A stretch of DNA of 64,000 nt from a virus. Its lineage: Duplodnaviria; Heunggongvirae; Uroviricota; Caudoviricetes. Positions 1-52,781 of this stretch are shown here, piece by piece. Each line of letters begins with the position of its first letter. Within the stretch, counting starts at the first letter, position 1. Below the pieces are notes generated by a model. The model saw only the letters and a program-made list of their open reading frames with translations, was not told where the DNA came from and did not search any database. Position numbers and translations under genes: made by a program. Where the stretch lies: IMG/VR virus record IMGVR_UViG_3300027797_000011. The stretch is one strand, 5' to 3'.

Positions 1-3000
1 GTGACAATATTTTTAATTGTTGATTCTAAGCTAGTTGATTCATTAACTTTAGGTGCCATCAATGCATTGAACAATCTTTCAGCTACAGGAGCAGGTTGTT
101 GTTGAGTTTGTTGTTGTATTCCCATACCTTTCCTTGTTATATCCATTAAATGGTTGATCCAATCCTCGCCTAATTTTTTAACATCGAACGCATTTGACCA
201 TACAGCCAATGCTTTCTCTGGCGGATCACTTTTTAAACTGTTGCGTAACATTGTTCCGCTAATTCCAGTTCCTCGAGGTGTAACACCGAGGCTTACCTTA
301 ACATGCTCGTACCCTTGAAACTTATTAACAGCCTTCATTAATGCTTGGGGCATATTAAGATCTTTCCGATCTTCGCCTACCATGATAACAATATTATCAT
401 AACGTGGAGGCTTATTTGGCAATGGATTAATTAATTCATGTTTGATCTTTTGTATTAATTGTCCACCTTGTTGTACTGTGCTAATATTTTTAGCATACTC
501 GGGATATAATTTGTGCCATGTTTGTACCTTGACTGCTGGCGGAATAGGATCATCTTTGCCTTCAGCATTGCCAATAAACAAATAAGGATCACCGCCTAGT
601 TCGCTGGCCTTATTAATTGTATAGTTAAACAGTTCTTCGTGTCCTTTATGCCCAATAAAGGATCCTATTGCTACTACAGCAGTCTTAGATTCGCCTCTCG
701 GACGTTCTGTTCTTGCTGATGTTTTGGCGGCCTGCTTACCGGCAATGACTGCACGTTGTTCTGTACTGGTAATTTTTACAGGACCTAATCTTGTGTTTAG
801 TACAATACCTTCGTAGTCTTTGCCTAACATATCTTTACCGACAATGTTAGGATCTTCTGCAATGGCTTTTTCTAATGCAAGTTTAACTGGTTGTAATTGT
901 GCTTCAACATTTTTTCTAAGTTCTAAGCTAGTACGATCTCTTTTACCTGCGGTATCTGATACTATGCTTTTTAGTTCTTCAATATTTTCTAACGGTGGAA
1001 CAATTGCGGTAACATCTAATGCTTTGTTTTGTGTTAGACTGTTGTCGATAAACATAACACTACTTTGTTGTCCGAGGCCTGTTAATTCTTTTATAACTTC
1101 CTGAGAATTTTCAACAGGCTCACCTGTACTAGCAGTTACTACGTTTAATGGAACTAGTGCAAGTTGTACACCTTGTGGAAGTTTGTCATAATGAATACCA
1201 ACAAACTTTAATTTACCTTCTTCAGTTTCTGTAGCAAATGGTAAAAATAATACTTCACAACTTACTTGTTTGTCTATTAAAAAGTCTGGCCCTAACTTGC
1301 TGTCAACTAATTTAACAGCGTTCATCATTTCTACAAACAAGTCATCAAACAGTTTAGCACGACCTAGTATCTCTGGATCTTGTGTACCTTTTTCTTGATG
1401 GTATTTTACAAATCCCGGTGCATATCTTGGCTCAGTCCGGCTGGTACCCATAAAAGGTTTACCATCTGCGTTCTTACCAAATCGCCCACCAAAGCCGTCT
1501 ACCTTAACATTTAACGGCATATTTTCTAATTTGAAATTACCGTTACCGTCGTGTATCTCATCTAGTAAATCTAAAAAGTCAGCGGCCTTAAGATCTTTAA
1601 GATGCGGCATGCCTTTACGCAGTTGTGCTTTTACTTCGGCTTCGTTTAAACTTTCGTGTTTAGCCTTACCAGCTTTCATATTAGCCATCCAATGTGCTAA
1701 CTGTCCTTTACGTCCGCCTTGTTTGGCAACATTGCGTAATGTACTTATGCTTGCTTTGGTTGGAACTCCGTGACGTTTGCTGTCGCCCTTGTCTTGCGGA
1801 TTCTTTCCATCGGCAAAGTTCTCCGCCACACCTTGCTTACTTTCATTCATACCTTCTGCACCATATTGAGCAATTTTACCTGCTTTGTGCATGTTCTTTA
1901 CTTGTTTGAATACTTTATCTAAATCATCAGTAACACGAACTATCCACCCTTGATCGGCGATGTATTTGAATGGGTCACCAATGGGCACCTGCTTGATAGG
2001 CTTACTAGGATTTTCACTAAACCATTCACCTGTAGGTAATTGTCTGAAATCGCTAGCATCAAACACAGTTAAGTAAGTTTTACGACTACGCATTGCTGGC
2101 AAATCTTTGCGGTCAAAATAAACAATGGGTTGGCCGTTTTGTGTAAACTCTACATAGCGTGTTTCGTGTGCGTTGCCAGTTGCGTATAATGCTGTTCTCC
2201 TTGGATCACCAGCAAACAATCCTTTAGTAGTATTAGTTTTAAGATTTTTATTCTTCCAATAACTATCGTCACCTGTGTCTACACCACTTTGGCTCCAATC
2301 ATCCGTATGCTTGTATGCTTTAAGACTAGACCCAAAATCCGTGATAGGGTTACTATCAATTCGTGTAACCGTTGCTCCTTCCGCCACACCTTGCCCCACA
2401 TTATCTCTATAAGGCCTTACCCAAGTAAATCTTGTGTCAGCAGGTATCCATTTGATACCCAGCCCATTGTTGCCTTTGGCAGGATCCATATCTACCAGCA
2501 ACCAGTTTTTTTCATCGCTAAATGGTACCGTATGTGCTTTCTTCAAGATGCGAATAATTTTGCCCGAGTCTGCTATCTTGCCCATCATGGCATCTTCATT
2601 CTTAATGCTTTCACCCCCGCCATCACCACCCCCGCCATCACCTGAACTGTCTCCGCTGTAGTCAGCGTAATATCCATATCCACCGTACAGGCCAGGACCA
2701 TAGGCAGCATGACGAGCTTTACGTTTTTTATTACGGCGTTCTTCTAAAGTTTGTGTATCAGCAAAGTTTTCATTTGCGGGTTGACTTGCGGCTTTTGCTC
2801 TCTTCAATGCGGCACGTGGTTGTTTTTCTTCCGGATGTTCTTTCTTGTAGGCTTGCACTTCATTGAACTCATCCATGTAGGCCTTGCCCATTTCTATGGC
2901 AGTATTTCTCAACTTACCTAGCTTGCCCACCTTAACAAAGTTATCAATTGCGGCAAACTTAATTTCTTGATCACGCTCTGGATCATTCTTAGTGATCATT

Positions 3001-4049
3001 TGAGCATTACCTGGCTCAAAACAAAGATCTAAGAAAGCCATAAACACACTTTCTTTAGAAGCAGGATCTGGAATATATTTGTTAATTAACTCGAGTGTTC
3101 CTAAGAAACTCTTTTGTAATTCTTTATCATTGCCTTCGGGATTTGCGCCAAAGAAATAGTAGAATTGTTTATCTAAATTCTGTATGTAGGTTCTCTGAGC
3201 AGATGGTATTAATCTCTTGTAAGGAACTTCGTCCTTGTGAGTTTGCTTTTCACCAGTCTCTGGATCGGTATTAATATAAGGTTCGTACTTTTGACTTAGC
3301 CCGCCCCCCTGACCACTAGCAACTGCAAACGATAAATCGTTGTCACGTACATTTGGTTTAATATTTGTTTTTGTTTTCTTTACATCTACTTGATGTTTAA
3401 CACTACTATGTGCAGAAGTTAATGCACGATATATGTATTTGTGAAAAACACCTTTGATGCCTGCTTGAATGTCGTTCCATTCTGAACTATGACTAAAGCG
3501 ATACCACTCATCGGGCATGTCTGTTTCTGTATCATATCGACCAAATTCAAAATCTATTTGAATTTTAATAGGAGGATCTTGGAATTGAAATAGTGCATTA
3601 AGTTGTTCACTACCTTGACTAAATCCTAATAGTGTTGTATCGCCTATTTGTTTATGATCGTATGCAGTTAAAAAATCTCTAATCTCTGGTTCAAGTTCTT
3701 TATTACATTGTGTATCAATGTCGCCAACTTTAGGTTTATGTTTAGTAAACTCTTTGTCACTAATACCATCTGTATTAAAGAAATGTAAACTACTGCCACC
3801 TAAGAATTGTTTTGATTGTAGTAAATTAGGATTCCACAATGGCTTTTTGTATTTGCTATAAAAAGCACCATTGATGTCGTTTAATAATTTATCTAGTAAC
3901 CCCACCATAAAACTACGGTTTTGTACTTTGAGATCGATCTCGTCAGCTTGATAAGGTGCAGTGGGATCGTTAGGATTGGGTAATTCTAAGTTGCCACCTT
4001 CAAAAAGAGGAACAGTCTTTTTAGGTTTGAATAACTCGTTTAAGATCAT
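1..4049 (-). CDS. Very large multidomain protein (over 1340 aa), 3' end truncated by the window edge. Contains a ligase/capping-type motif I (NVKVDGFGGRFG), a Gly/Asp low-complexity linker and an HxGH-like segment.
   Basis: ATG at 4047-4049 (minus) overlaps the stop of the upstream gene in an ATGA arrangement. A continuous minus-strand frame was translated by eye down to position 1. No complete minus ORF appears in the track for 1-4045, and the plus-strand ORFs there are short and mirror-like. Motif KVDG(F)GGRFG sits near 1480-1500; GYGYYADYSGDSSGDGGGGDGGGES near 2600-2700. Confidence 0.6.
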   Translation of the reverse strand, partial: MILNELFKPKKTVPLFEGGNLELPNPNDPTAPYQADEIDLKVQNRSFMVGLLDKLLNDINGAFYSKYKKPLWNPNLLQSKQFLGGSSLHFFNTDGISDKEFTKHKPKVGDIDTQCNKELEPEIRDFLTAYDHKQIGDTTLLGFSQGSEQLNALFQFQDPPIKIQIDFEFGRYDTETDMPDEWYRFSHSSEWNDIQAGIKGVFHKYIYRALTSAHSSVKHQVDVKKTKTNIKPNVRDNDLSFAVASGQGGGLSQKYEPYINTDPETGEKQTHKDEVPYKRLIPSAQRTYIQNLDKQFYYFFGANPEGNDKELQKSFLGTLELINKYIPDPASKESVFMAFLDLCFEPGNAQMITKNDPERDQEIKFAAIDNFVKVGKLGKLRNTAIEMGKAYMDEFNEVQAYKKEHPEEKQPRAALKRAKAASQPANENFADTQTLEERRNKKRKARHAAYGPGLYGGYGYYADYSGDSSGDGGGGDGGGESIKNEDAMMGKIADSGKIIRILKKAHTVPFSDEKNWLLVDMDPAKGNNGLGIKWIPADTRFTWVRPYRDNVGQGVAEGATVTRIDSNPITDFGSSLKAYKHTDDWSQSGVDTGDDSYWKNKNLKTNTTKGLFAGDPRRTALYATGNAHETRYVEFTQNGQPIVYFDRKDLPAMRSRKTYLTVFDASDFRQLPTGEWFSENPSKPIKQVPIGDPFKYIADQGWIVRVTDDLDKVFKQVKNMHKAGKIAQYGAEGMNESKQGVAENFADGKNPQDKGDSKRHGVPTKASISTLRNVAKQGGRKGQLAHWMANMKAGKAKHESLNEAEVKAQLRKGMPHLKDLKAADFLDLLDEIHDGNGNFKLENMPLNVKVDGFGGRFGKNADGKPFMGTSRTEPRYAPGFVKYHQEKGTQDPEILGRAKLFDDLFVEMMNAVKLVDSKLGPDFLIDKQVSCEVLFLPFATETEEGKLKFVGIHYDKLPQGVQLALVPLNVVTASTGEPVENSQEVIKELTGLGQQSSVMFIDNSLTQNKALDVTAIVPPLENIEELKSIVSDTAGKRDRTSLELRKNVEAQLQPVKLALEKAIAEDPNIVGKDMLGKDYEGIVLNTRLGPVKITSTEQRAVIAGKQAAKTSARTERPRGESKTAVVAIGSFIGHKGHEELFNYTINKASELGGDPYLFIGNAEGKDDPIPPAVKVQTWHKLYPEYAKNISTVQQGGQLIQKIKHELINPLPNKPPRYDNIVIMVGEDRKDLNMPQALMKAVNKFQGYEHVKVSLGVTPRGTGISGTMLRNSLKSDPPEKALAVWSNAFDVKKLGEDWINHLMDITRKGMGIQQQTQQQPAPVAERLFNALMAPKVNESTSLESTIKNIV

Positions 4050-4450
4050 TTTTTATGATCTCCGACCTGATAGTAATCTTCTTGCACATCATCTATAAAC
4101 TTATCACAAAGTCTTTTGCATAGTTCGTCTTTAAAATCTTCGTCAAATAGCTTTGCTGGATTATCTGTTAGTTTATGATGTTTGTAAAATAACCTACAGC
4201 CTTTATTAACCATAGGCATCCATGATTTAGTGAATCTGTTTCTGTTAAAATCTGGTGAAGTTATCTGTGTTTTTAATTCTTTTACAAATGGTAGAACATG
4301 TGCTTTGTGTAGTGCATCATTATCAATAATATACCAAAATAGCTCATCGGCCATCTTGGCTTTTTCTTCTTCTGTTTTACTTTTGCCGTAATCGGGGAAT
4401 TTCCTATCTTTTTTGTCGACAGGGACGTTAAAAAATTCGTATAGTTTCAT
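4046..4450 (-). CDS. hypothetical protein (134 aa)
   Basis: ORF track. 4-nt ATGA coupling to the downstream giant ORF. Confidence 0.6.
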   Translation of the reverse strand: MKLYEFFNVPVDKKDRKFPDYGKSKTEEEKAKMADELFWYIIDNDALHKAHVLPFVKELKTQITSPDFNRNRFTKSWMPMVNKGCRLFYKHHKLTDNPAKLFDEDFKDELCKRLCDKFIDDVQEDYYQVGDHKK

Positions 4451-7758: not shown

Positions 7759-8625
7759 TTATGATTGATGAAACTTACTTAGTAACTCTACTTGACCGGG
7801 AGTTAATTGTGTGGGTATTTCAATATTAATAGGCATCAACATTCTGCCTCTGAATCTGTTGTCGTTAATATTAGGCATACCATATCCGGCCGCACTTAGT
7901 ATCTGTCCGTGCTGTGTTCCCGGATTAATTGTTACTTCCAATGTTCGACCGTCGATTGTATCAATTGATAATTTGCATCCCAGTATTGCCTCGACACACA
8001 TAACATTTATTTGTTTAACAAGATCGTCGCCTTGTCTTACAAATCCTCTATGTGCGGCAACTGACACAGTTAAATGAATGTCTCCTCTTGGAACATGAGG
8101 GTGTGAATCGTCACCTAGTCCTTGTACCTTTAACATGGTACCGTCTTGAATACCTGCTGGTATTTTAATATTGATAGTTTGGTTTCTTCCACTAGGTAGT
8201 GTTACTTCCGCTAACCAATCTCTACCATAGAACGCTTCTTCTAATGTAATATTTGTCTGTACATTAATTGATAAGTTTCTAGGCTGTTGCGGTCGTTGTC
8301 TAAAAAATGAAAATGGATCAACGTCTGGAGGCCGGTTAAAAAAATGTGCAAACATTTCTTCTGGATTTACATGCATACCGTTATATGCCTGGTGCGCTCT
8401 TTGATTTTCAAACCAGGGATCTGATCCTCGCGGATTTCGATCATATTCTGAACGTCTAGTAGGGTCGCTTAAGATACTGTATGCAATTTGCACATTTTTA
8501 AATATTTCGCCATCACCACCTTTATCGGGATGATGTTGCCCAGCCAACTTTCGATAGGCTTTTTTTATATCTTCGTATGAAGCGTCTTTTTGGACGCCTA
8601 GTGTTGAGTAATGGTCTGTTAGCAT
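7759..8625 (-). CDS. DnaJ/CbpA-type J-domain co-chaperone (no zinc-finger repeats)
   Basis: N-terminal J domain YSTLGV...[14 protein letters not shown] containing the HPD tripeptide. DnaJ C-terminal beta-domains follow. 288 aa. Confidence 0.85.
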
Positions 8626-8633
8626 AATAATTG

Positions 8634-8667
8634 AAAAAAGGTATAGTACAATTAATTATACTATACC
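8634..8667 (-). terminator. rho-independent terminator after the small secreted-protein gene
   Basis: Perfect 9-bp stem GGTATAGTA/TACTATACC with a 10-nt loop. In the minus sense it is followed by UUUUUU. Confidence 0.6.
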
Positions 8668-8687
8668 TTCCCCTGGGAGTCAAGTTT

Positions 8688-8891
8688 TTATTTCTTTTCT
8701 GGTACTTTTGTACCTTCTAATTTTTTATGAACTTTAATCTTCTTGCAGTCCTGTTTTACGGAACCGTCTTTATTTTTGACAGGCTTGCCGGCCTTATCTA
8801 ATTTGTCATGACATACTTCTTTGGTTTCACCACCTGCATACACATTGGTTGTCAAAAATCCAACAAGTAATAATGCTAATAATTTTTTCAT
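8688..8891 (-). CDS. small Lys-rich secreted protein (67 aa) with signal peptide
   Basis: N-terminus MKKLLALLLVGFLTTNVYA; two Cys; very basic. Confidence 0.55.
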   Translation of the reverse strand: MKKLLALLLVGFLTTNVYAGGETKEVCHDKLDKAGKPVKNKDGSVKQDCKKIKVHKKLEGTKVPEKK

Positions 8892-8900
8892 TTGTTTTCC

Positions 8901-9443
8901 TTATAGTACTGGATCTACTTGTGGAGCTGGAGCAGGTTTGCCTCCAAATCCGCTTGTTACTGAGGGGGTCGATGTTGTAGGCGCTGGTGCTCCAAATCCT
9001 GAACCACTATTAAAGCCTGTTGGCGCTGTAGATGAGCTTCCAAAGCTGCCTCCGCTAACGCTACTTGCCGGAGGTGTTGTGCCGCCGCCAAATCCGGCGC
9101 CTGCAATTGGTGCTGGCGGAGTATATGTTGTGCCGCCTGTTGGTAAGGTAAGTCCGCCATTGTTTGCTCCACTTAATTTTTCTTGAGTTCGACCGTATGC
9201 ACTGATACCAATAACGGCACCCATAGCAATATGGAATAATCCTGCTCCCTGTAATGTTATTGGTTGCCATTGTACATTTACTGCGCCATGACTTATGGAT
9301 TGTAACAGGCTCCATAATATAGGAAATACTACAAAATCCGTAGTACAAACCAACATATACATCCAGCCCATCATTGGACGCCATTTTGAATTCATCCAAT
9401 CTTCTTTTTTCTGTTCGCTCTCGCTTTTAACTTCTTCTGCCAT
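8901..9443 (-). CDS. multi-pass membrane protein with a Gly/Pro/Ser/Thr-rich FG-repeat-like C-terminal tail. Holin candidate.
   Basis: About 3 hydrophobic helices in residues 25-85. C-terminal 90 aa are low complexity with GFGG, SFGS, GFNS and GFGA repeats. Sits at the edge of the lysis region. Confidence 0.55.
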   Translation of the reverse strand: MAEEVKSESEQKKEDWMNSKWRPMMGWMYMLVCTTDFVVFPILWSLLQSISHGAVNVQWQPITLQGAGLFHIAMGAVIGISAYGRTQEKLSGANNGGLTLPTGGTTYTPPAPIAGAGFGGGTTPPASSVSGGSFGSSSTAPTGFNSGSGFGAPAPTTSTPSVTSGFGGKPAPAPQVDPVL

Positions 9444-12881: not shown

Positions 12882-13291
12882 TTGGGTTTAGCTCCTATTG
12901 TTCTTTGCATTGTTTCTGCAGATGTTTCTATAGATTCAAACTTAATTTTACAAAATACAGCACTTACTTTATCATTTTTTTGATATTGATCTTTTAGCCC
13001 TTGTGCAATACCGTCAAGATTAACTGACGCTGTAATAACTTTACTATTATTAGGTAAATGTTCTACAAAGTTTTTAAATGCTAATGTCTTTTTAGAAATA
13101 ATTCCCGCCTGCTGTTTTGATTCGTCATGGTTGCTACAATTCTGTTTGGCATAGTAAGCACTAGTTCTAATGTCTGATATTTGATAATATTCGTTACTAT
13201 CGTATTTCATTAGGTATGCTTCTTTTAAATCTGCAAAAGATGCACATCCAGTTAGTGTTACTATCAATGACAATAATATTAATTTTTTCAT
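12878..13291 (-). CDS. lipoprotein (137 aa)
   Basis: Signal peptide with lipobox LTGC (MKKLILLSLIVTLTGCAS). Confidence 0.6.
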   Translation of the reverse strand: MKKLILLSLIVTLTGCASFADLKEAYLMKYDSNEYYQISDIRTSAYYAKQNCSNHDESKQQAGIISKKTLAFKNFVEHLPNNSKVITASVNLDGIAQGLKDQYQKNDKVSAVFCKIKFESIETSAETMQRTIGAKPK

Positions 13292-13572
13292 TTTACACTT
13301 TCAAATATTTCTTTTTGTGATTTGTACCATTCAATCCATCCTTCGGATTTAATTGCACATTGATGATACTGTCCATAATTATCAACCACTACACTAATTA
13401 CTTCGCTTAATTTAACTGTTTCGGGTACTTCTTTTAATTCTGGGCAGGATACCAATAGTTCTTCAGGTACGCTAGGAAAGTTTCTTTTTACAGGCGCTGT
13501 TGAAGAACATCCTGTAATTAAAAATGCAAGTATGATAAAAATTACAAGGACAAATAATTTAATTAATTTCAT
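13288..13572 (-). CDS. small lipoprotein, o-spanin (Rz1-like) candidate
   Basis: Lipobox ITGCSS; Pro-rich mature region with Cys. 4-nt overlap with the upstream TM/coiled-coil gene. Confidence 0.55.
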   Translation of the reverse strand: MKLIKLFVLVIFIILAFLITGCSSTAPVKRNFPSVPEELLVSCPELKEVPETVKLSEVISVVVDNYGQYHQCAIKSEGWIEWYKSQKEIFESVK

Positions 13573-14069
13573 TTGTTGACCTCTACTGAGGTTACTGGAC
13601 TTACTATAACTGTGCCTTTTCTTAATCTTGCCGCATCATTAAGTATTATAATTGCTTCGGGGGCAACCTTGCATTCTGCATCAATTATTTTCTCAACTTC
13701 TTTTATTCTATCTTGATATACTATTTGATATTCTTTAACTGTTTTAATTTTGTTAACTATTTTAGTTTTAATTACTGTATTAGTTTGTTGACTCTTTGCT
13801 TCAGCTTCTGCGATCTTTTGTTCCATTTCTGCAACTCGAGCTCTCCATTCTGCTTCGGTGCTGTATCCACCTTTAAAATATACCCCGCCGACAAGTAATA
13901 CTATGCTTAATATTTGTAGTAATAAATGTATTGGTGCAAGTTGTGGGAACCAACGCAATAAGCGATTCAAAAGAAAAAAGGATAGTAGAAATCCCACTAC
14001 CCCAGCAATCAGCATACCATGTATTACCCAGAGTAGCAAGCTATCTGGAATAAAATGCAACATCCACAT
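13569..14069 (-). CDS. N-terminal TM plus periplasmic coiled-coil protein, i-spanin (Rz-like) candidate
   Basis: Hydrophobic N-terminus of about 65 aa, then AEWRARVAEMEQKIAEAEAKSQQ coiled coil. Immediately upstream of and overlapping the lipoprotein gene. Confidence 0.5.
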   Translation of the reverse strand: MWMLHFIPDSLLLWVIHGMLIAGVVGFLLSFFLLNRLLRWFPQLAPIHLLLQILSIVLLVGGVYFKGGYSTEAEWRARVAEMEQKIAEAEAKSQQTNTVIKTKIVNKIKTVKEYQIVYQDRIKEVEKIIDAECKVAPEAIIILNDAARLRKGTVIVSPVTSVEVNK

Positions 14070-16237: not shown

Positions 16238-16290
16238 GAAACCGCGTAACAATCCGACCTGCATCAGAAATTGTTACGCGGTTTTGTTAT
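16238..16290. terminator. bidirectional rho-independent terminator between the convergent phoH and clamp-loader genes
   Basis: 13-bp inverted repeat ACCGCGTAACAAT...ATTGTTACGCGGT, with an A-run upstream and a T-run downstream. Confidence 0.65.
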
Positions 16291-17216
16291 TGTCCTCGAA
16301 CTAATCTTCCCAGTTTTACCAGTGTAGCAGATAAGTTAATTTCTGGATCTGCAATTAATCCGTGATCAACTAATCCTTGTTTGATGATTAATAGAGCACT
16401 ATCTTTTGTTTCTTCATCTGCGCCAAACAAATCTATATTATCGTACATCCAGCGGAACACGCCGCCGAGCTCTTCAGGTCTTGCACTCGAACATATCAAT
16501 TTACGAGCTTCTTGTAGCTTTTGTTTCTTAAACAATTCAACCATAGCAATTTTATAGTCTGCTTGTCCTGCATCACTGCTATTGGCCCCAATCAAAGATC
16601 CGTCTTGTACATTTTGTTGTACAAAATTAATACATTTACGTAGATCGGGATATGTTGTTTTAACATAAGTGTCGAGCGTGTCTAAATCAAACTCTACATT
16701 TTCTTCTACTAAAATTGTAGCAACACGAGCAGTAAACTCTGTTTGGTCAATGCTGGTAAAATGCATACTTTGGCATCGACTATGAATTGCTGGAATAATC
16801 TTATTAGGATGATTGCAGGTTAGTATGAATCTACTAGTACCTGAAAACTCTTCCATAACGCCACGCAGGGCCGCCTGTGCTTCTGGTGTTAGATAATCTG
16901 CCTCATCTAACAGTACAACCTTAAATGGACCAAACGGAATCATACTGACAAAGTTAGTAATACGTTCTTGTACTTCTTTAATACCACGTTCTCGACTTGC
17001 GTTCATTTCAAGAACATCATATTCTTCAATGCCAATTTCACCAATCAACATTTTAGCAAGGGTAGTTTTACCAATACCCGGACTGCCGCTTAACAACAGA
17101 TGCGGAATACTTTTGTCTTTAATCCACGTGGTAATTTGTTTTCTTTGATTTTCATCTCGAAATACATATTCGTTTGTTGTTTTCGGCCGATATTTTTCTA
17201 CCCATAATTCTATCAT
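16287..17216 (-). CDS. clamp-loader ATPase subunit (T4 gp44 / RFC small-subunit family)
   Basis: Walker A SGSPGIGKTT, Walker B LLDEADYL, and the SRC motif IHSRCQ. 309 aa. Confidence 0.85.
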   Translation of the reverse strand: MIELWVEKYRPKTTNEYVFRDENQRKQITTWIKDKSIPHLLLSGSPGIGKTTLAKMLIGEIGIEEYDVLEMNASRERGIKEVQERITNFVSMIPFGPFKVVLLDEADYLTPEAQAALRGVMEEFSGTSRFILTCNHPNKIIPAIHSRCQSMHFTSIDQTEFTARVATILVEENVEFDLDTLDTYVKTTYPDLRKCINFVQQNVQDGSLIGANSSDAGQADYKIAMVELFKKQKLQEARKLICSSARPEELGGVFRWMYDNIDLFGADEETKDSALLIIKQGLVDHGLIADPEINLSATLVKLGRLVRGQ

Positions 17217-19351: not shown

Positions 19352-19797
19352 TATAGATCTCCGTCTTTGCGATTTTCTGAATAAAAGGCATCAAACTCTC
19401 CACCCGGATATCGAGCTTTAAGTTTGTTAACATTTTCTGCAATAACATCATTGGGATCTAGATTTAAAGCACGGCATGCATTGATCCAATACCACATTAC
19501 ATCACCTAACTCTCTTTTCATATGAAAGAGATTTTCTTCAGTAAATGGTTTTCCTTGAAACAGTATCTTTTTAGGAATTTCAATAAATTCCCCTGCTTCG
19601 GCCGCAAGCCCGAGACATGCAGTAATTAACAACGGAACATTAGTATCGGGACCGTGTTCTCCTTCGCCAATATAATTCCCATCCACTTCATCCATACGGT
19701 TCATGAATGTGGTAAGGTCGTTGCTTTCTTTGCTGGTAACGGCTTCTACAAAATCTTTGTATTTGTTTAAATCAATTTGGTTGTGCATCGGATACAT
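19351..19797 (-). CDS. mazG: MazG-like nucleoside triphosphate pyrophosphohydrolase
   Basis: EAGE-type motif LAAEAGEF and ELGDVMWYW, characteristic of MazG. Confidence 0.8.
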   Translation of the reverse strand: MYPMHNQIDLNKYKDFVEAVTSKESNDLTTFMNRMDEVDGNYIGEGEHGPDTNVPLLITACLGLAAEAGEFIEIPKKILFQGKPFTEENLFHMKRELGDVMWYWINACRALNLDPNDVIAENVNKLKARYPGGEFDAFYSENRKDGDL

Positions 19798-20149
19798 TCA
19801 AGTTAAGGGCGCCAATTTTAACACGCATTGCATCGTCAGGCGCTTCATCGCTTACACACAGTATAGCATTATTATCGGCTAATCGTATATCTATAATTTC
19901 GCCGTTTTCGGCCTCGTACTTGTGTCCTCTACTCCAACGACCGTGTTCCATAAGAATCCATTGGCCCACTTCAACATCTGTTTGATCTGGTCCAATAGCA
20001 AACACTTTCCCCCAGCGAGGATGAATACCTGAACTTTTACCATCATCGCTCTGTAACAAAATACCGCTTTTTGTTTTATCCATGCCGAAATTCATATCAG
20101 AAATAAGTACCTTATTTCCTAACGGCCTGATAGTTCCTTTTACAGTCAT
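19772..20149 (-). CDS. GroES / T4 gp31-like co-chaperonin
   Basis: RPLGNKVLI start resembles GroES RPLHDRVIV. About 125 aa beta-barrel-type composition. Confidence 0.6.
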   Translation of the reverse strand: MTVKGTIRPLGNKVLISDMNFGMDKTKSGILLQSDDGKSSGIHPRWGKVFAIGPDQTDVEVGQWILMEHGRWSRGHKYEAENGEIIDIRLADNNAILCVSDEAPDDAMRVKIGALNLNVSDAQPN

Positions 20150-20442
20150 TTTGTTTCCTTAATTTTACTTTTAGGTTGTGCAGGTTCTATAGTTGGACGT
20201 TTAGGGGTATTAATTTTTACTTGACTTAATGACAGTTCTTCGTCGGATACTGTCCTAGGATCATTGTCATAATATTCTGCCAAAACAGATTCTCTAGTTT
20301 TAATAATTTTACCATCTGGGCCTAGTTCATCGCCTCGAGCATTAACACGTACATTACCTACTGCGGGCATGGTCTCGTGTTTGGCCATTAATGCTTCCAT
20401 GTCAATTTCTTTACCCTGCATTGTTTTATAAATTCGTTTCAT
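20146..20442 (-). CDS. hypothetical protein (98 aa)
   Basis: ORF track. Confidence 0.5.
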   Translation of the reverse strand: MKRIYKTMQGKEIDMEALMAKHETMPAVGNVRVNARGDELGPDGKIIKTRESVLAEYYDNDPRTVSDEELSLSQVKINTPKRPTIEPAQPKSKIKETK

Positions 20443-20451
20443 AATTTCTCC

Positions 20452-20973
20452 TTATTTTAGGAATTCTTTAATATCTAGCTCGTATTTGATACTGTTTATT
20501 TTATGAACACCTATTAGGTATAGCACGTAACTGGCTACACTACTGCCTCGCCCTACGCCCCATACTATTTTGTTTTCACGCATTGTGTCAACTAAGTATT
20601 TAAGGTACTTTAACAACGTGATCATATTATGTTGGGCAAATAGGTCTAGTTCTTCTTTTACCCTAATCTGTGCAACAATATCCGGAGCCTGCTCTAAAAC
20701 CCAATTTTTAATATCAAATATTTTATAGTTTTCGGGCATATACCAGATATCCTGTCTAAGACTATCAGCAAACTCCATGGTATAATTAGGCTCAGTATAT
20801 TGATGGATTTTTGGAATATGATCTGCATTAGTACTCACAGACGAATTGAACTGCACTACATCGGATGTATTTTGTAAAAAGATATTTTCAAAATCTTGTA
20901 GTCGTCCGGAATACAAAGACTCAAATGCTTCTTTGCTGTCTAAAATTACATTACCGTATTTGTCAATATCCAT
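20452..20973 (-). CDS. DnaE (Pol III alpha) palm-entry fragment homolog, 173 aa stand-alone
   Basis: C-terminal EELDLFAQHNMITLLKYLKYLVDTMRENKIVWGVGRGSSVASYVLYLIGVHKINSIKYELDIKEFL follows the DnaE consensus ...ELxVIxxMGFxxYFLIVxDFIxxxxxNxIxVGPGRGSAAGSLVAYxLGITxxDPLxYxLLFERFL. The ORF stops just before the catalytic PDxD region. Confidence 0.55.
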   Translation of the reverse strand: MDIDKYGNVILDSKEAFESLYSGRLQDFENIFLQNTSDVVQFNSSVSTNADHIPKIHQYTEPNYTMEFADSLRQDIWYMPENYKIFDIKNWVLEQAPDIVAQIRVKEELDLFAQHNMITLLKYLKYLVDTMRENKIVWGVGRGSSVASYVLYLIGVHKINSIKYELDIKEFLK

Positions 20974-21004
20974 ACTGACAGTATAACAGGTTATTTGAGC
21001 AAGG

Positions 21005-21247
21005 TCAATTAACTTTGATTAGATCGCCGAGATCTTTATTTTGATTGTTTCTGGTTTTTGTAAGAAGAGCATGACTTCTTTTTAGTTGTTCTTGTCTAAG
21101 TGAATCTAAGATAACAACAATTTGATCACACATAATACCTTGACCAAATCGAGCCGCCGTATGATACTTTTGAGAAAGATCGATTATTTTATTTTCTAAT
21201 TCGGAATCTTTTAAAGTTGACGGATCAGCTAATAACGGATGATACAT
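21005..21247 (-). CDS. hypothetical protein (80 aa)
   Basis: ORF track. Confidence 0.5.
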   Translation of the reverse strand: MYHPLLADPSTLKDSELENKIIDLSQKYHTAARFGQGIMCDQIVVILDSLRQEQLKRSHALLTKTRNNQNKDLGDLIKVN

Positions 21248-28027: not shown

Positions 28028-28852
28028 TCAAATAGCAAACAATTCTTTTACTTCTTCTCGAACATCATCGTACGGTACAATGTTAATTGCTTGATTTTGG
28101 AAGCTATCTAAAATAGTTTTAGTAGCAGTTAATATATCAAGTCCTTTACTTTGCAGATAGTAAAGTTTATCGAGATTTAAGTGATCTGTTGTGGAACCTA
28201 AGGAAGATACAACCTCGTTGCAATCGGTGTAAATGTCAGGCCTACTGCGGCATCTACCGTTTTCTCCTATTATAAAGTTTCCGCTTTCAATGTGTGCTTC
28301 ACTACCCTCTGACCCTTTATCGAGAACAGTCATCCCTTGAAATACTGTTTGACTGTCCTTTCCGGCAACTCCAAGAATAATCTGATTACTACTAGAATCA
28401 ATATGTTGATGAATAATCTTTGTAATAATTTCAGTGTCGCCGCCCACGGTATTCATCATAAGACCATACGAATTAAATTCAGCACCTTCTTCTAAATATA
28501 CTTGGATAATGTGTTTGTTGAATTTTCCGTTTTTAACAAACATTCCAAAATTGATTCCAGCGCCTTCCGCTACATGAATATCGTACAAAAATACCTGTTG
28601 TAGTTTATGATCTGCTTCGTTAATTACAATTAAATCCAACTTACCCTCGGGCTTAACTTGAATCTTAATATGTTTTGCTAACAATTCCTTTTCTGTAGGA
28701 TTTTGCCGCAGTACCATAGTATTGCTGTGACCTTCTGCAAGCTCAACGGTGCTAGCCTCAACAACTTTAAACTCTTTACCAAAATATTTTTCTGGGGAAT
28801 ATTGCCAATCTGGGTCGCCTTTTTCAGCTTTGAGAAAACTGTGAATAGCCAT
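28028..28852 (-). CDS. sufD: SufD/SufB-family Fe-S cluster assembly protein (shortened, 274 aa)
   Basis: C-terminal CRSRPDIYTDCNEVVSSLGSTTDHLNLDKLYYLQSKGLD aligns to the SufBD signature SRPELEIYADDVKCSHGATVGxLDxxQLFYLxSRGI. Confidence 0.65.
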   Translation of the reverse strand: MAIHSFLKAEKGDPDWQYSPEKYFGKEFKVVEASTVELAEGHSNTMVLRQNPTEKELLAKHIKIQVKPEGKLDLIVINEADHKLQQVFLYDIHVAEGAGINFGMFVKNGKFNKHIIQVYLEEGAEFNSYGLMMNTVGGDTEIITKIIHQHIDSSSNQIILGVAGKDSQTVFQGMTVLDKGSEGSEAHIESGNFIIGENGRCRSRPDIYTDCNEVVSSLGSTTDHLNLDKLYYLQSKGLDILTATKTILDSFQNQAINIVPYDDVREEVKELFAI

Positions 28853-29591
28853 CTTCTATTATCCTTTTATATAATTCTGGACCACCATGTTCTTTAATTT
28901 CCCCGTCTACAATAACATGCACATGGGTAGGAACAATCATGTCTAAAAATTGTTGATTATTTGTAATTACGGCCATTGATTTTTTACCATCTACATAGCT
29001 GTTTAAAACGGCGCCTAATATCTGTAGGTCTTCTTCCTCTAAATTAGAATCTATTTCATCTATAATGACAAAATCTGGATCTAACATCAACATCTGAAGA
29101 ATTTCGTTTTTCTTAAATTCTGATAGATTCATAAAATCGTAATCCATCATCGCATCCCCATGCCCTGATGGTAATTCGAGCATAGTACACAATACCTTAT
29201 AATCTTTTTCTAATTCGTTTTCGGAACGAGTATCTTTCTTGGCTTTCATCATAGCTTTAATTAGGTCTATGTTTCTAAGCCCGTAGATTTCTGGAGGATT
29301 TTGAAAAGTTGTGTGTATACCTAACTTTGCCCTATCCTCACAATCTAATCTAGTTATGTTTTTATGTTTAAAAGTAATCGATCCCTCAGTTTGAATTATT
29401 GAAGGATGCCCGGCAATTAAATGAGCAAGACTGCTTTTGCCAGAATGTTTAGGGCCCAAGATTGCATGAATCTCGCCCTGTTTGATGTTTATTGATATAT
29501 TTTTTAGTAGGTCTTTAGTATCAACTACCGCAGACACGTTTTTTATTGTTAGCATTGTTTTTATTATAAAGGTTTCAAACTCTCTTGTCAA
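28824..29591 (-). CDS. sufC: SufC-like ABC ATPase
   Basis: Walker A ILGPKHSGKSSL. The region NLSEFKKNEILQMLMLDPDFVIIDEIDSNLEEEDLQ matches SufC [36 protein letters not shown]. 255 aa. Confidence 0.75.
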   Translation of the reverse strand: MTREFETFIIKTMLTIKNVSAVVDTKDLLKNISINIKQGEIHAILGPKHSGKSSLAHLIAGHPSIIQTEGSITFKHKNITRLDCEDRAKLGIHTTFQNPPEIYGLRNIDLIKAMMKAKKDTRSENELEKDYKVLCTMLELPSGHGDAMMDYDFMNLSEFKKNEILQMLMLDPDFVIIDEIDSNLEEEDLQILGAVLNSYVDGKKSMAVITNNQQFLDMIVPTHVHVIVDGEIKEHGGPELYKRIIEDGYSQFSQS

Positions 29592-29708: not shown

Positions 29709-29981
29709 ATGGAATATATCATTGGTGTTATTTTTATTGCCTTAGTAGCGTTCTTTTTTCTTAACAGAAAACAGATCGAGGTAATCGAGGAAGTTAAAGC
29801 TGTAGAAAAAGCTGTAGTTGAAGAAGTTAAGGCGGTTGAAGCAGTAGTTGAAGAAGTAGTAAAGAAAGTACGTAAACCACGTGCTACTCCTGCTACCTCG
29901 GCTGCTAAGAAGCCGGCCACTAAGAAGCCAGCCGCTAAAAAAGCTGTAGTTAAGAAACCTACTACTTTAAAGAAGGCGTAA
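29709..29981 (+). CDS. small membrane-anchored protein with VEEVKAVE repeats and a histone H1-like Lys/Ala/Pro basic tail
   Basis: RBS AGGAA 9 nt upstream. N-terminal TM IIGVIFIALVAFFFL. C-terminal AAKKPATKKPAAKKAVVKKPTTLKKA. Terminator follows. The overlapping minus ORF 29630..30016 looks like a mirror artefact. Confidence 0.6.
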   Translation: MEYIIGVIFIALVAFFFLNRKQIEVIEEVKAVEKAVVEEVKAVEAVVEEVVKKVRKPRATPATSAAKKPATKKPAAKKAVVKKPTTLKKA

Positions 29982-31043
29982 TTCTTTAGCCTTATCGTGC
30001 AAGGCAAACGAGGCAATATTTTTGCCTTTTGATTCGCACATAATATCGTGCGTATTGAGAAAGCTCAAAGCCCATTCGTTAACTGCTGTATTCCAGTAGA
30101 AATCAGAATGTGCTCTGAGCTTTTGTTTTTTGTATCCGGCAGTTAGTAACGTGTGATGATGGGGCATTATGTTAGTGTCATGATCCACGAGATAATCTTC
30201 CCGAGATACTGAATAATGACAAGTAGGGCGCATACTACGCCAACTGTCCAGGACACGAATAACACGACTATCTTGGTTACTGATATATTCCCCCTCACGT
30301 ATCCAGTGATGGTGAATGTCAAGCACAATAGGAACGATATCGCTAATAGTAAGGCAGTCATCTAAGCCCCAGGAGTTTTCTTCGTTTTCAATTGTGATAC
30401 AATTTCTTGCTTCGGGGGTAAGTCTTTTGTAGGCAGATCGAATACCTTCGGGACCTTGTTTACCCGAGATGTGGACGTTGATTTTAAAGTCCTGAAATGA
30501 TTTACCGTAACCCATGTACCTGGCCATATCTGCATGATATTCAAACTCCTCTATTGATCTTTCAACAATACCTGGGTTATCGCTTGCCAGCACAGTAAAC
30601 TGGCCAGGATGCATAGACAACCGAACACCGTTCTTGCGAGCCGCATCTCCCACGGTTCTAAATTCTCTTTCGAGATATGTTCTAACGTTGCTAGTCCGCC
30701 AAAACCCAGCCCAATCACGCTGAGTATATACAGGCAGTATATCGCTTGAGAGTCGTACCATTCTAAGATTTTCATCTAGTGCTCCTACACGTTCGACGAG
30801 CAACCGAGTAGACTCAATGTTACCTACCATTAAGTCCCAAAGTCTTTGCTCTGCGACTTCTTTGCTCTGTCTATTTAACCATGCAACAGTAGTGGAGCCA
30901 GTATTATATTTCTTAGCATCGTCCTTAGCGTCGATACCATTAACTTGTCCTGCGTGATCAATCCACTTGCAGGCAAAACCAATTCGTTTAGTCACTAGAT
31001 TTGTCTTTCTTTGAAAGCATAAAAGAACCGTCGCCGTTGTCAT
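29967..31043 (-). CDS. uvdE: UV-damage endonuclease (UvdE/UVDE family); true start probably internal
   Basis: TIM-barrel UVDE pattern including RLSMHPGQFTVL and NCITIENEE. 358 aa. Local GC higher than surroundings. Confidence 0.7.
   Translation of the reverse strand: MTTATVLLCFQRKTNLVTKRIGFACKWIDHAGQVNGIDAKDDAKKYNTGSTTVAWLNRQSKEVAEQRLWDLMVGNIESTRLLVERVGALDENLRMVRLSSDILPVYTQRDWAGFWRTSNVRTYLEREFRTVGDAARKNGVRLSMHPGQFTVLASDNPGIVERSIEEFEYHADMARYMGYGKSFQDFKINVHISGKQGPEGIRSAYKRLTPEARNCITIENEENSWGLDDCLTISDIVPIVLDIHHHWIREGEYISNQDSRVIRVLDSWRSMRPTCHYSVSREDYLVDHDTNIMPHHHTLLTAGYKKQKLRAHSDFYWNTAVNEWALSFLNTHDIMCESKGKNIASFALHDKAKELRLL
30003..30031 (+). terminator. rho-independent terminator for 29709..29981
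   Basis: Hairpin GGCAAA-cgaggcaatatt-TTTGCC followed by TTTTG. Confidence 0.55.
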
Positions 31044-32677: not shown

Positions 32678-32899
32678 TTAGCCCAAAGCCGCCAAAGTTG
32701 TTTCATTAGCGTTCCATAGCTCAAGAGCCTTTGCAGGATAGATCTGCACAGATCCCTTTTCGGTAGAGCTCTCAACAGCATAACCTTCTGGAGTTAATTC
32801 CGTTGAGTATGTACCGACAACAGTTCCGTGCCATTGCGACCCGGATATTTTTTTAACTAAATCGCCTAATTTGAATTTCATGTACATATCTCTATTCAT
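32678..32899 (-). CDS. hypothetical protein (73 aa)
   Basis: ORF track. Confidence 0.5.
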
Positions 32900-33348
32900 T
32901 AAGCTTCGTAAGTTGCCGAATTGGCGCCGTGTTCAGCACACTCAACTCGTACACAATGACAACGACCACCACTCTTTTCACGTATCAATTGGTCAGCAAA
33001 GTTAAAAGCATGTTCAGCAAACTTCTCTACACCAACTCCGTCAAAGATACGGATCTCTGCTAGGTCTAATGCTTCTAGTTCTCGAAACTTGGCCAGATGG
33101 GGATCTGTCTTGTCTAAGGCCATCTTGTGATCAAAGTTATCTTCTAGCCATGCTTTCAGCGGTTTGAGTCCGCCAAAATCCACCGCCCAGTTTTTATTGT
33201 CTAATGAGTCACACCCAAATGTGAATGTGAACGCTAGACTGTAACCGTGTAGCAGGTGACAATGACTGTGATCTGCATTAGGTTGACGAAATACCGCCGA
33301 CAGACCAATGTTGTGTCCGTAATGTTTTGTTGAGAAATATTTTGCCAT
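32899..33348 (-). CDS. queD: 6-pyruvoyl-tetrahydropterin synthase / QueD-like
   Basis: CHLLHGY (Cys-x3-His-x-His zinc motif) and the PTPS fold signature. 149 aa. Confidence 0.75.
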
Positions 33349-43315: not shown

Positions 43316-43624
43316 TCAAATCTTAACTTTGTCAAATCTTAAATAAAATTCTGACAACTTTTTCTTTTCCAATTCTGCAACAATTACATATTGATGTCCA
43401 TAATTGTATGGATCGGCCCGCCTGTGCCAAATTGGAGTTTCAATAGCATGTTCCATAACAAACTTGCCTGCTTCGCTTTCTTGCCATTCCCAGAGTGGTT
43501 GTGCGGCATATAAGTCCGGATCTTCAACATCACCCATACTGAATTTATGTACAACTACTTTGTGTATTTCTTCTACACAACGATAGCCGTCTTTGTCATA
43601 TTCACGACATCTCACTTTGTCCAT
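43316..43624 (-). CDS. hypothetical protein (102 aa)
   Basis: ORF track. Confidence 0.5.
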   Translation of the reverse strand: MDKVRCREYDKDGYRCVEEIHKVVVHKFSMGDVEDPDLYAAQPLWEWQESEAGKFVMEHAIETPIWHRRADPYNYGHQYVIVAELEKKKLSEFYLRFDKVKI

Positions 43625-44019
43625 ATCAAGTGATACAACGTTAAAAACTTCTCACCATCTTTTTTGTCGTCGAATGCCCAGGTATCCCATGCTGTTCGTC
43701 GAACTCCGTTCCATTTGGACAACTCATTTACTACCCAATCAACCCTAGTGTCTAATGCGTGACTACTAGAACTTTTATTAATTATTTCGGGAGGCCACAC
43801 TTCTTCTAGATACAATGTCCATGCTTTATGTTTTTTATTTAAAACAGGTCTAATAGTTGGATCTTCAATCATATTTACCCAACCCTTTATTACATGATCT
43901 AACTTATCAAGAGCCTGTTCAAGTGTTACCGACATCTGCTTTCTTTCGTTTGGTAAACGTTCTTTTCTTTGCAGGTCGTTTACCGGCAGGTCGTACATTG
44001 AAAGGTTGATTTTTTGCAT
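43612..44019 (-). CDS. hypothetical protein (135 aa)
   Basis: ORF track. Confidence 0.5.
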   Translation of the reverse strand: MQKINLSMYDLPVNDLQRKERLPNERKQMSVTLEQALDKLDHVIKGWVNMIEDPTIRPVLNKKHKAWTLYLEEVWPPEIINKSSSSHALDTRVDWVVNELSKWNGVRRTAWDTWAFDDKKDGEKFLTLYHLIWTK

Positions 44020-44407
44020 GTTCTGCTCGCTCTATTGCGGCATGAATTTGTTCCGAAGTAGGTTCGTCTTCTGTTGGAAAATCAATTGGATTATCTGTGC
44101 TACTTACATGAGCATTTACAGGAATTTTAATTCCAACTTTCTTTAGATAACGGCCTGCTAGTTTCATATCCATATTACGATAGCACATGATTGGTCCTTT
44201 AGCATCTGGGCTAATTTGATCAAACTCACGTACTTCATATATATCGTCGATGCCTGTTTTAATTTCAAGCACATACAACTCGTGACCTTCTTTATGATTT
44301 TCGTTTAAGTGGTCAAGTGTAATAATTTCTACAACTCTACCTTGTACTAGGCTTTGTTCGCCCATATGGATCCAAACTTGATCCTTAATATTATATTCTG
44401 TTTTCAT
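43919..44407 (-). CDS. hypothetical protein with basic C-terminal tail (about 162 aa from the internal Met)
   Basis: ORF track 43919..44527, trimmed to the internal Met MKTEYNIKDQVW to avoid overlap. Confidence 0.45.
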   Translation of the reverse strand: MKTEYNIKDQVWIHMGEQSLVQGRVVEIITLDHLNENHKEGHELYVLEIKTGIDDIYEVREFDQISPDAKGPIMCYRNMDMKLAGRYLKKVGIKIPVNAHVSSTDNPIDFPTEDEPTSEQIHAAIERAEHAKNQPFNVRPAGKRPAKKRTFTKRKKADVGNT

Positions 44408-50749: not shown

Positions 50750-50773
50750 AAAAAAAAGCCCACCGAAGTGGGC
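50750..50773 (-). terminator. rho-independent terminator of the tmRNA coding piece
   Basis: Minus sense: GCCCACUUCGGUGGGC followed by U8. Confidence 0.7.
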
Positions 50774-50779
50774 TTGGTG

Positions 50780-51110
50780 GTTTCTGTTACGAGGTATTTC
50801 CTACCCTAGGCGGCTGTTAGGCGGCCAATGCGAACTGTTCGTCGTTTGCGTTTACGTGTTGTGCTTCTACGACCGAGTTACCCCAATCCTACGGGTTCTG
50901 CTTTCCCGAGCTGTCCACTCATTTACTTGTTGCCCTGTCGAAACTATGCATCCCCATCAAAAGCATACTATTTTAGTCTGAGCGCATCACATGCGACTTT
51001 TTAACTCAACGACCTAGTATGCTTATGGTGGAGATGGGGGGATTCGCACCCCCGTCCAGAACACTTTTCTCTTTGCTTCATACAGCAATAACCTACAGTA
51101 TATATTTATT
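50780..51110 (-). ncRNA. ssrA: circularly permuted two-piece tmRNA (ssrA). Acceptor piece at about 51026-51110 ending CCA; intervening hairpin 50956-51025; coding piece 50955 down to about 50780. Tag ANDEQFALAA.
   Basis: Minus sense. The 3' end GGACGGGGGUGCGAAUCCCCCCAUCUCCACCA has a T-arm and acceptor. The 5' start GGGGAUGCAUAGUUUCGACAGGG lies 70 nt downstream of the CCA in transcription order. Acceptor GGGGAUG/CAUCUCC has a G3-U70 pair. Tag frame GCA AAC GAC GAA CAG UUC GCA UUG GCC GCC UAA. The spacer forms an AAGCAUACUA/UAGUAUGCUU stem. Confidence 0.8.
51075..51092. repeat. 18-bp direct repeat copy 1 (GCTTCATACAGCAATAAC)
   Basis: Identical copy at 51567..51584; extended imperfect similarity of about 34 bp. 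Confidence 0.8.
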
Positions 51111-51446
51111 CAGAGGAGTTGTCAATAACCTGTTACGCCAAAACTCTCGGGCCGCATCGCTTTGTTCATCGCTTGGAACTAGTACTCCGTCAATCTCACT
51201 TTGCACAATGTCGTACATCACCGTGGCAACACCCGTTCGTTTGTAACCGGAATATACTTCAATGTGATGCGGATACCATTTGTTATCTCTATCATACTTG
51301 AAAACTGCTGTGGAGATTTTTTTAGACCGAACTTTGTTTTTAATTACGGATACAGTGAATATAAGACTGCATTTATTTTTGGTGTAATCGTAAACAACTT
51401 GTTCTTGAGTTTTAATCAAAGAACAGACCAACTGATAGTCTGACAT
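51093..51446 (-). CDS. small GNAT-family acetyltransferase (117 aa)
   Basis: HIEVYSGYKRTGVATVMYD matches the GNAT acetyl-CoA-binding motif A (R/Q-x-x-G-x-G/A). Confidence 0.55.
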   Translation of the reverse strand: MSDYQLVCSLIKTQEQVVYDYTKNKCSLIFTVSVIKNKVRSKKISTAVFKYDRDNKWYPHHIEVYSGYKRTGVATVMYDIVQSEIDGVLVPSDEQSDAAREFWRNRLLTTPLNKYIL

Positions 51447-52690: not shown

Positions 52691-52781
52691 ACAGTTAACT
52701 TTAACATGTTATTGTATTTAAGTCAAGTAATTGTGAGTAAATTAACTACCGTTATAAATAGCGTTATGAGAGAGTAATAAC

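Follow-up and report, generated by a model that had tools for sequence, protein, structure and literature searches.

Why should a phage carry a gene for one small piece of a bacterial polymerase, a piece that ends just before the catalytic residues? The question is raised by a gene in IMG/VR virus record IMGVR_UViG_3300027797_000011 (Caudoviricetes), of which a stretch of 64,000 nucleotides, hereafter the window, was analysed. The gene (20452–20973, minus strand; 173 amino acids plus stop codon) had been singled out in a preliminary description as a stand-alone homologue of DnaE, the alpha subunit of DNA polymerase III (Pol III alpha). Three explanations had been offered for it: a remnant of a fragmented polymerase gene, one part of a DnaE that is split and has its remaining parts in other places, or a mimic or competitor of host Pol III alpha. 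Our analysis favours the second. The encoded protein, here called the N-unit, is probably one subunit, the one that binds the nucleotide, of a minimal C-family polymerase that is a heterodimer encoded by two genes, and its partner would be a protein family that we call the C-unit.

A system of this kind has been described before. Iyer, Anantharaman, Krishnan, Burroughs and Aravind (2021, Viruses 13:63, PMC7824862) presented, as a computational inference, the N-terminal nucleoside triphosphate (NTP)-binding unit of a 'minimal' Pol III alpha, which jumbo phages of group 2.2 (Rak2-like) encode as two genes far from each other. The same lineage also encodes a family-B replicase (PMC7824862). No experimental follow-up of this split polymerase was found in the literature; other papers merely carry the 'Pol III alpha' label. 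By its sequence relationships, the window gene is a new member of the described system and its PHROG families, from an uncultured aquatic clade. To the published account we add an explicit identification and characterisation of the C-unit family, statistics on the co-occurrence of two genes that are never adjacent, and structural models. Further additions are a precedent for a DnaE split at the same junction by a homing endonuclease gene (HEG), a linked open reading frame (ORF) and a conserved promoter of the leaderless type.

The N-unit is homologous to a segment of the Pol III alpha palm

The 173-residue protein matched Pfam family PF07733, the N-terminal segment of the Pol III alpha palm, with E=5.9e-11. 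By this homology it is a true relative of that segment, as the preliminary description had recognised. The homologous part was delimited with a family-profile hmmsearch against E. coli DnaE, the N-half of the Clostridium phage CS266P3 DnaE and the Dulem virus DnaE, together with a PDB profile search, and comprises residues 97–173 (20455–20685, minus strand), equivalent to E. coli alpha 321–392. The profile alignment of the family to DnaE starts at E. coli 321. Within it, the GRGS sequence of the hG[GS] motif (G141-R142-G143-S144, codons at 20542–20553, minus strand) aligned with E. coli R362-G363-S364.

The last residues of the N-unit, EFLK, pair with E. coli DnaE 389–392. The C-terminus falls nine residues short of the catalytic aspartate pair, and D401 and D403 lie outside the polypeptide, in agreement with the earlier statement that the ORF terminates before the catalytic aspartates. 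The accompanying label 'PHP-to-palm junction' was right about the palm but inaccurate as a whole, because no PHP part is present: Pfam at E≤10 returned PF07733 only. The chain, which ends at the equivalent of E. coli 392, also lacks the other features of a complete DnaE, namely the catalytic aspartate triad, thumb, fingers, beta-binding and OB domains. We therefore consider 'split minimal Pol III alpha, N-unit' the proper annotation for the window gene, rather than 'DNA polymerase III alpha subunit' or pseudogene.

A large family of constant length under purifying selection

The N-unit matched phrog_11127 ('DNA polymerase', 171 positions) end to end (E=8.3e-43, residues 3–173 versus profile positions 9–171 of 171). 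A search of 5.8 billion proteins yielded at least 8,000 matches, and the best 120 of these are all 171–189 amino acids long and lie on contigs of up to 393 kb. An exhaustive hidden Markov model (HMM) search of 1.84 billion representatives of 50%-identity clusters gave 361 representatives at E≤1e-30 and 948 at E≤1e-10. Among the best 150 representatives (98–222 amino acids) the final position of the profile was the C-terminus of the protein in every case.

An alignment of 65 sequences, which included cultured phages at only 36–38% overall identity, revealed invariant residues at W77, R104, E108, L121, G139, G141-R142-G143-S144, V146, S148-Y149, L151, G155, H157, S161, Y164, L166 and E170-F171-L172. 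The WGVGRGSS...EFL block was unchanged throughout. The ratio of non-synonymous to synonymous substitution rates (dN/dS) was 0.14–0.17 between the window N-unit and two orthologues (86–89% amino acid identity) and 0.09 between those two. The proportion of non-synonymous differences (pN) reached its lowest value within the gene in the DnaE-like half (0.027, versus 0.113 in the N-terminal half). Given the fixed length and fixed stop in thousands of homologues, the invariant block and a dN/dS of 0.09–0.17, we conclude from these comparisons that the N-unit is a conserved protein under strong purifying selection and not a remnant.

As a separate observation, the proportion of synonymous differences (pS) in the DnaE-like half (20455–20685, compared with loci L289 and L006) was 0.21, less than half of the 0.49–0.56 found in the N-terminal half, and L289 and L006 are identical in DNA over the DnaE-like half. 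Chance, a recombination tract or constraint at the nucleotide level could each account for the low pS.

A probable partner family carries the catalytic residues

In the annotation of phage 121Q (1–44 kb stretch), gp16 (13282–13920, 212 amino acids) bears the RefSeq flag 'DNA polymerase'. Its motifs occur in the order of DnaE: TDIDIDF (E. coli PDFDVDF), HNSGV (KHAGG), YQKVDILS (VKFDFLGL, with D555), MIRPGKR (LFRPGPLQ) and KPHAYAYS (KSHAAAYA). With this C-unit family, one query sequence gave 796 matches and a profile at least 8,000, so that both families, with at least 8,000 matches each, are very abundant in environmental jumbo phages. C-unit members are 189–220 amino acids long, come without a precomputed Pfam domain and are annotated 'hypothetical protein' in most records. 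Invariant in their alignment are D16/D18/D20, H48, G51, K80/D82, R149-P150-K152 and K187/H190/Y194, and many of the proteins begin M(x)DIDIDF.

The family corresponds to phrog_11778, and one aquatic member also matched positions 579–678 of phrog_405, the PHROG of full-length DnaE (E=2e-7). Pfam returned finger-domain matches below threshold only. The AlphaFold2 (AF2) model of the C-unit alone had a predicted local distance difference test score (pLDDT) of 92.5 and a predicted template modelling score of 0.79, and its 13 best Foldseek matches in the PDB were all Pol III alpha; beyond them, E-values exceeded 1.6. Missing from the C-unit are the PHP domain, the thumb, most of the fingers, the clamp-binding domain and the OB domain. 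When E. coli DnaE 393–661 was used in a tblastn search of phages, about 1,380 ordinary phage DnaEs were recovered and the jumbo-phage C-unit was missed.

A tblastn search with the C-unit itself identified 96 phage records, and their host breakdown was the same as that of the stand-alone N-unit (Escherichia 34, Pseudomonas 11, Klebsiella 10–11, Salmonella 8, Erwinia 8, Xanthomonas 4 and Yersinia 4, among others). Both lists had at least 37 accessions in common, with a single copy of each gene per genome, and overall the two genes occur together one to one in about 90 isolates. Every cultured relative checked has a distant C-unit gene with the catalytic aspartates, which supports the proposal that the window gene is a piece of a split DnaE with other parts elsewhere. 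In cross-checked isolates the two genes are 14–220 kb apart; the N-unit and C-unit genes are at 44.3 and 13.3 kb in 121Q, 149.1 and 115.2 kb in RaK2, 187.7 and 143.9 kb in PA5oct, 137.1 and 121.7 kb in XacN1, 240.9 and 58.3 kb in Atu_ph07, and 97.2 and 321.3 kb in Phosso. Among 289 loci (3.1 Mb), the N-unit was present in 202 and the C-unit in 81, both together in none. No C-unit was detected within ±10 kb of the N-unit in 200 loci, and a fused protein was never seen.

Complementary boundaries suggest one active site from two genes

The ends of the two proteins are complementary. The N-unit has one residue after EFL and C-units open 0–15 residues ahead of DIDID, where full-length DnaE has a gap of eight residues. 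Nucleotidyltransferases with the Pol-beta-like fold hold the triphosphate in the hG[GS] loop, which lies between the first strand and a helix, and have the DxD motif on the next strand. The break thus falls between beta1, the GS loop and the helices (N-unit) on one side and beta2 onward (C-unit) on the other, and the sheet must be completed in trans. In the AF2 model of the N-unit alone, residues 1–135 were confident (pLDDT 75–93) and the invariant residues 140–173 reached only 51–69; together with the confident model of the C-unit alone, this is in keeping with sheet completion in trans.

In the proposed enzyme, residues 97–173 of the N-unit would supply strand beta1, the first of the Pol-beta-like palm (IVWGVG), the triphosphate-binding GRGS loop and the helices that follow. 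About 95 residues precede this conserved segment, and roughly 50 of them would also adopt the fold of the N-terminal palm part. The C-unit (about 200 amino acids) would start essentially at the following strand, DIDIDF, and bring the three catalytic aspartates as well as the palm and finger motifs HxxG, RPxK and KxHxxxY. Although encoded tens to hundreds of kilobases apart, the two polypeptides would assemble non-covalently and form the palm sheet in trans, with a single active site. The enzyme would act beside the family-B replicase, most plausibly in repair, gap-filling or the synthesis of one strand.

Several points weigh against this reading. The position of E. coli R390 is occupied by an invariant glutamate (E170) in the N-unit family, and contacts with the nucleotide may therefore differ from those of DnaE. 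Foldseek with the model of the N-unit alone gave matches that were consistent but not significant (E about 0.09), and a single-sequence PDB search returned noise only. The lack of adjacency throughout the 289 loci is an unusual pattern for proteins that are obligate partners. Moreover, the C-unit is absent from the window according to C-unit phmmer and HMM searches, whose sole weak match (43615–44031, E=0.014) is devoid of every motif. The search for other DnaE fragments or PHP domains that the preliminary description had recommended likewise found none in the window. Neither phmmer with E. coli DnaE, motif regular expressions nor Pfam on 68 ORFs detected another DnaE piece, and none appeared with Pfam (E≤5) on the concatenated window ORFs of at least 70 amino acids, most of which were covered (all but the giant structural ORF and a few whose identity was already established). 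We infer that this phage encodes its C-unit outside the window, by extrapolation from relatives that are at most 38% identical. Binding between the N-unit and C-unit and DNA polymerisation by the complex are likewise proposals, as is its biological role. Finally, the absence of thumb, clamp-binding and proofreading modules makes a replicative role doubtful, and it speaks against a processive replicase and for repair, gap-filling or a specialised transferase.

In 121Q (NC_025447.1; locus L088), gp9 (8128–8946) encodes a DnaQ/epsilon-like exonuclease, noted 'DNA Polymerase III', 4 kb from the C-unit gene. Such an exonuclease is conceivable as a proofreading partner of the split enzyme, although the latter lacks PHP, the epsilon-binding domain in bacteria. 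No homologue of gp9 was found in the window.

Genomic setting, promoter and the adjoining NARGD gene

No near-identical DNA to the window was found in the phage collection. Judged by the N-unit protein, its relatives are jumbo myoviruses: Atu_ph07 and Phosso (38%), XaC1, SCTP-2, Vibrio 2.275.O, XacN1, the PA5oct group and the Rak2/121Q group. The order N-unit, small ORF, Cpn10-like gene, gp44-like clamp loader is common to the window, Atu_ph07, MIJ3 and 121Q, and the closest large relative, a 372,475-bp Joint Genome Institute (JGI) contig, 3300071517 Ga0620987_00189, is collinear with the window. The Cpn10/GroES-like (gp31-like) gene lies at 19772–20149 (minus strand; Pfam Cpn10; phrog_931/3188) and keeps its place on the JGI contig as well. 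An RFC/gp44-like clamp-loader subunit, recognised by translation and synteny, is encoded at 16287–17216 (minus strand) and occurs a few kilobases downstream of the N-unit in all relatives; the conserved core block also includes MazG. This synteny, the gp44-like clamp loader, 18 tRNAs and a transfer-messenger RNA (tmRNA) place the N-unit gene in a group 2.2 (Rak2-like, T4-core) jumbo phage.

Directly upstream, a sigma70-type promoter (TTGACC-17 nt-tgTATACT; 20980–21008, minus strand) ends 6 nt before the N-unit ATG, and no Shine–Dalgarno sequence precedes this start codon. The TTGACA-17-TATAAT-6-ATG geometry is kept in eight related loci despite divergent spacers (L289, L006, L007, L010–L013, L015). 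We give weight to the site because of this conservation and not because of the scan, in which 11 promoter-like sites were found versus 10.7 expected from shuffled sequences, a number not above chance. The abutting promoter is a property of the aquatic clade and is absent upstream of the Atu_ph07, MIJ3 and 121Q orthologues. The N-unit mRNA is thus probably leaderless, and the promoter type suggests transcription by host RNA polymerase.

An ORF of 98 amino acids (20146–20442, minus strand), here called NARGD, starts 9 nt past the stop codon of the N-unit behind a strong AAGGAG Shine–Dalgarno sequence and belongs to phrog_14844 (function unknown). Its core reads AVGN..VNARGD.LG.GG.II.TRE and is followed by a charged tail; Pfam gave no match. 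In 173 of 193 loci, those of Atu_ph07, MIJ3 and 121Q among them, the first gene downstream of the N-unit encodes a homologue. NARGD could be an accessory subunit or just a core gene in synteny.

Alternative explanations

The N-unit and C-unit might assemble as proposed and yet form a specialised nucleotidyltransferase instead of a templated replisome polymerase, for example one that bypasses lesions in modified DNA, adds terminal tails, makes or extends primers, or synthesises nucleotide signals. The Pol-beta-like fold serves many non-replicative transferases. The modules missing from the split enzyme (thumb, most of the fingers, clamp-binding, OB and PHP domains), the replacement of R390 by glutamate and the presence of a family-B replicase in the lineage (PMC7824862) all fit this view. 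It is nevertheless unlikely, if a serious contender: RPxK and KxHxxxY, finger motifs that contact template and incoming nucleotide in DnaE, are invariant, the best structural matches are solely C-family polymerases, and the two genes have no link to defence or counter-defence loci.

NARGD rather than the C-unit, or besides it, might be the functional partner of the N-unit. The spacing of 9–25 nt in the 173 loci and the strong Shine–Dalgarno sequence suggest co-transcription. However, the adjacency may reflect a block of core genes with Cpn10, MazG and the clamp loader, the protein has no homology to polymerase accessory factors, and the catalytic complementarity with the C-unit would be left unexplained; we hold this explanation to be quite unlikely.

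A more speculative idea, and to us an equally doubtful one, is that the split is functional and not a historical accident. The N-unit, made from a leaderless host-sigma70 transcript of its own and followed by NARGD, would then be a separately regulated activator that switches on the incomplete C-unit at a set time, with NARGD possibly as a third subunit that replaces the thumb or clamp tether. The result would be a three-part polymerase of about 50 kDa that serves gap repair, bypass or another task outside replication.

The mimic or competitor of host Pol III alpha that had been considered at the outset gained no specific support. As a stand-alone modulator or decoy, the N-unit would bind a part of the host or phage replisome (Pol III holoenzyme, clamp loader or clamp) without the C-unit, using either the surface that resembles Pol III alpha or the approximately 95 N-terminal residues that are specific to the phage, and inhibit or redirect host replication. 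Its resemblance to a surface segment of host Pol III alpha, its probable expression from a host-type sigma70 promoter and its position in a block with the clamp loader, never adjoining the C-unit gene, would suit such a role. Yet conservation is strongest in the active-site GRGS loop and the flanking secondary structure and not on a peripheral surface, and the conserved segment is predicted to be disordered on its own. In holoenzyme structures, E. coli alpha 321–392 is not known to bind epsilon, beta or tau, which also speaks against a decoy. Nor would a decoy explain why the N-unit strictly co-occurs, one to one, with a partner in which all catalytic residues are preserved, and we regard it as very unlikely.

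A decaying fragment, that is, a non-functional remnant of a broken or truncated full-length phage dnaE, would account for a piece of palm only that ends before the catalytic residues in a window that holds no further DnaE piece. It is contradicted by the constant length and stop position in thousands of homologues, the invariant block, the purifying selection and the conserved promoter and synteny, and can hardly be correct.

Joining of the halves after transcription or translation, by a split intein (for which cyanobacterial DnaE is the known case), an intron with a distant exon (group I introns that carry homing endonucleases are frequent in phage genes) or recoding beyond the stop codon, has a negligible chance of being right: one residue after EFL and 0–15 before DIDID leave no room for intein halves, Rfam detected no intron in the window, no DnaE-like reading frame lies downstream in any frame, be it in the window or, in 200 loci, over ±10 kb, and an unrelated conserved ORF begins 9 nt past the stop.

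Other features of the window

Elsewhere in the window, a permuted two-piece tmRNA of the betaproteobacterial type is encoded at 50753–51139 on the minus strand (Rfam RF04321, 119 bits; RF01850, 118 bits; tag ANDEQFALAA), a type that may hint at the host group. The 18 tRNA genes (40680–63889, minus strand) are mostly clustered at 59.8–63.9 kb and all lie on the coding strand. A very large ORF of at least 1,350 amino acids (3–4052, minus strand) is truncated where the window begins; early in its visible part it has a GGS...GDIDT motif like that of Pol-beta nucleotidyltransferases, and it shows a weak HxGH (FAD_syn/cytidylyltransferase-like) motif near its C-terminus, and otherwise only a sub-threshold match to DUF6886. 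At 32681–32932 (minus strand), a small ORF that matches the trimethoprim-insensitive dihydrofolate reductases of type II, or R67 type (Pfam DHFR_2, E=1.4e-19), adjoins a 6-pyruvoyl-tetrahydropterin synthase-like gene. Auxiliary genes that are unusual for phages encode a SufBD-like protein and a SufC-like ABC ATPase (28028–29591, minus strand), a UvdE UV-endonuclease (29967–31043, minus strand) and a malonyl-CoA decarboxylase-like protein (52770–53408, on the opposite, plus strand).

Comparison with known systems

If two pieces of about 20 kDa indeed rebuild an active enzyme, they would form by far the smallest C-family polymerase core, a natural experiment that shows how much of Pol III alpha is enough for catalysis. 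They would also make the origin of the replicase of bacteria accessible in a tractable model, in line with Iyer et al. (PMC7824862).

With the cultured members of phrog_11127 (121Q gp56, Atu_ph07 gp316, MIJ3_00130), the window N-unit shares the stand-alone length of about 170 amino acids, the GRGS...EFL block, the stop position, the synteny (small ORF, Cpn10-like gene, clamp loader) and the genome type, a T4-like jumbo phage of about 370 kb. It differs from them in sequence (at most 38% identity), in its uncultured aquatic clade and in the promoter that abuts the ATG. Compared with DnaE and PolC (PF07733; PDB 2HNH, 2HPI, 5LEW, 3F2B), the N-unit has neither the PHP domain, the catalytic aspartates, the thumb and fingers nor the beta-binding and OB domains, and together with its partner it comprises about 370–390 amino acids versus about 1,160.

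Cyanobacterial DnaE is likewise encoded by two distant genes, dnaE-n and dnaE-c, whose products are joined by a split intein. Both systems thus have a Pol III alpha from two distant genes. In cyanobacteria, however, the split falls after the fingers and intein fragments splice the halves, whereas the phage proteins contain no intein sequence.

The closest precedent for the position of the break is provided by Clostridium phage CS266P3 (OP172777.1, L086, 4029–7595), in which DnaE is cut by a free-standing I-HmuI-like HNH endonuclease gene. The N-half (402 amino acids, equivalent to E. coli DnaE 6–400) ends ...SRFMRKEKKKLPK, the C-half (508 amino acids, E. coli 401–889) starts MDIDVDF, and the sequence of the undivided relative from Dulem virus 36 is ...SRFMRKEKKKTPDIDVDF...; the trio is annotated only as hypothetical or endonuclease. 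Two further families, phrog_7513 and phrog_13169 (about 460 amino acids, with the N-unit match at their C-terminal end), suggest by this layout additional DnaEs split by HEGs. The preliminary description had advised to look for inteins or homing endonucleases, which was apt in general in view of CS266P3, but they were not found in the window: the Pfam matches listed for the window ORFs that were scanned included no HNH, GIY-YIG or LAGLIDADG domain, and the gene next to the N-unit is NARGD, where a HEG-fractured gene would have the HEG and the other half. In CS266P3 the halves are full-size (PHP plus N-terminal palm; C-terminal palm plus fingers) and adjacent, with the HNH gene between them, whereas in the jumbo phages they are minimal and tens of kilobases apart. 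The junction, between the helices of the GS loop and the DxD strand, is the same in both. CS266P3 shows that this junction tolerates a break, and by analogy suggests that the split in jumbo phages began as a 'genes-in-pieces' event of a homing endonuclease, followed by reduction and relocation of the halves.
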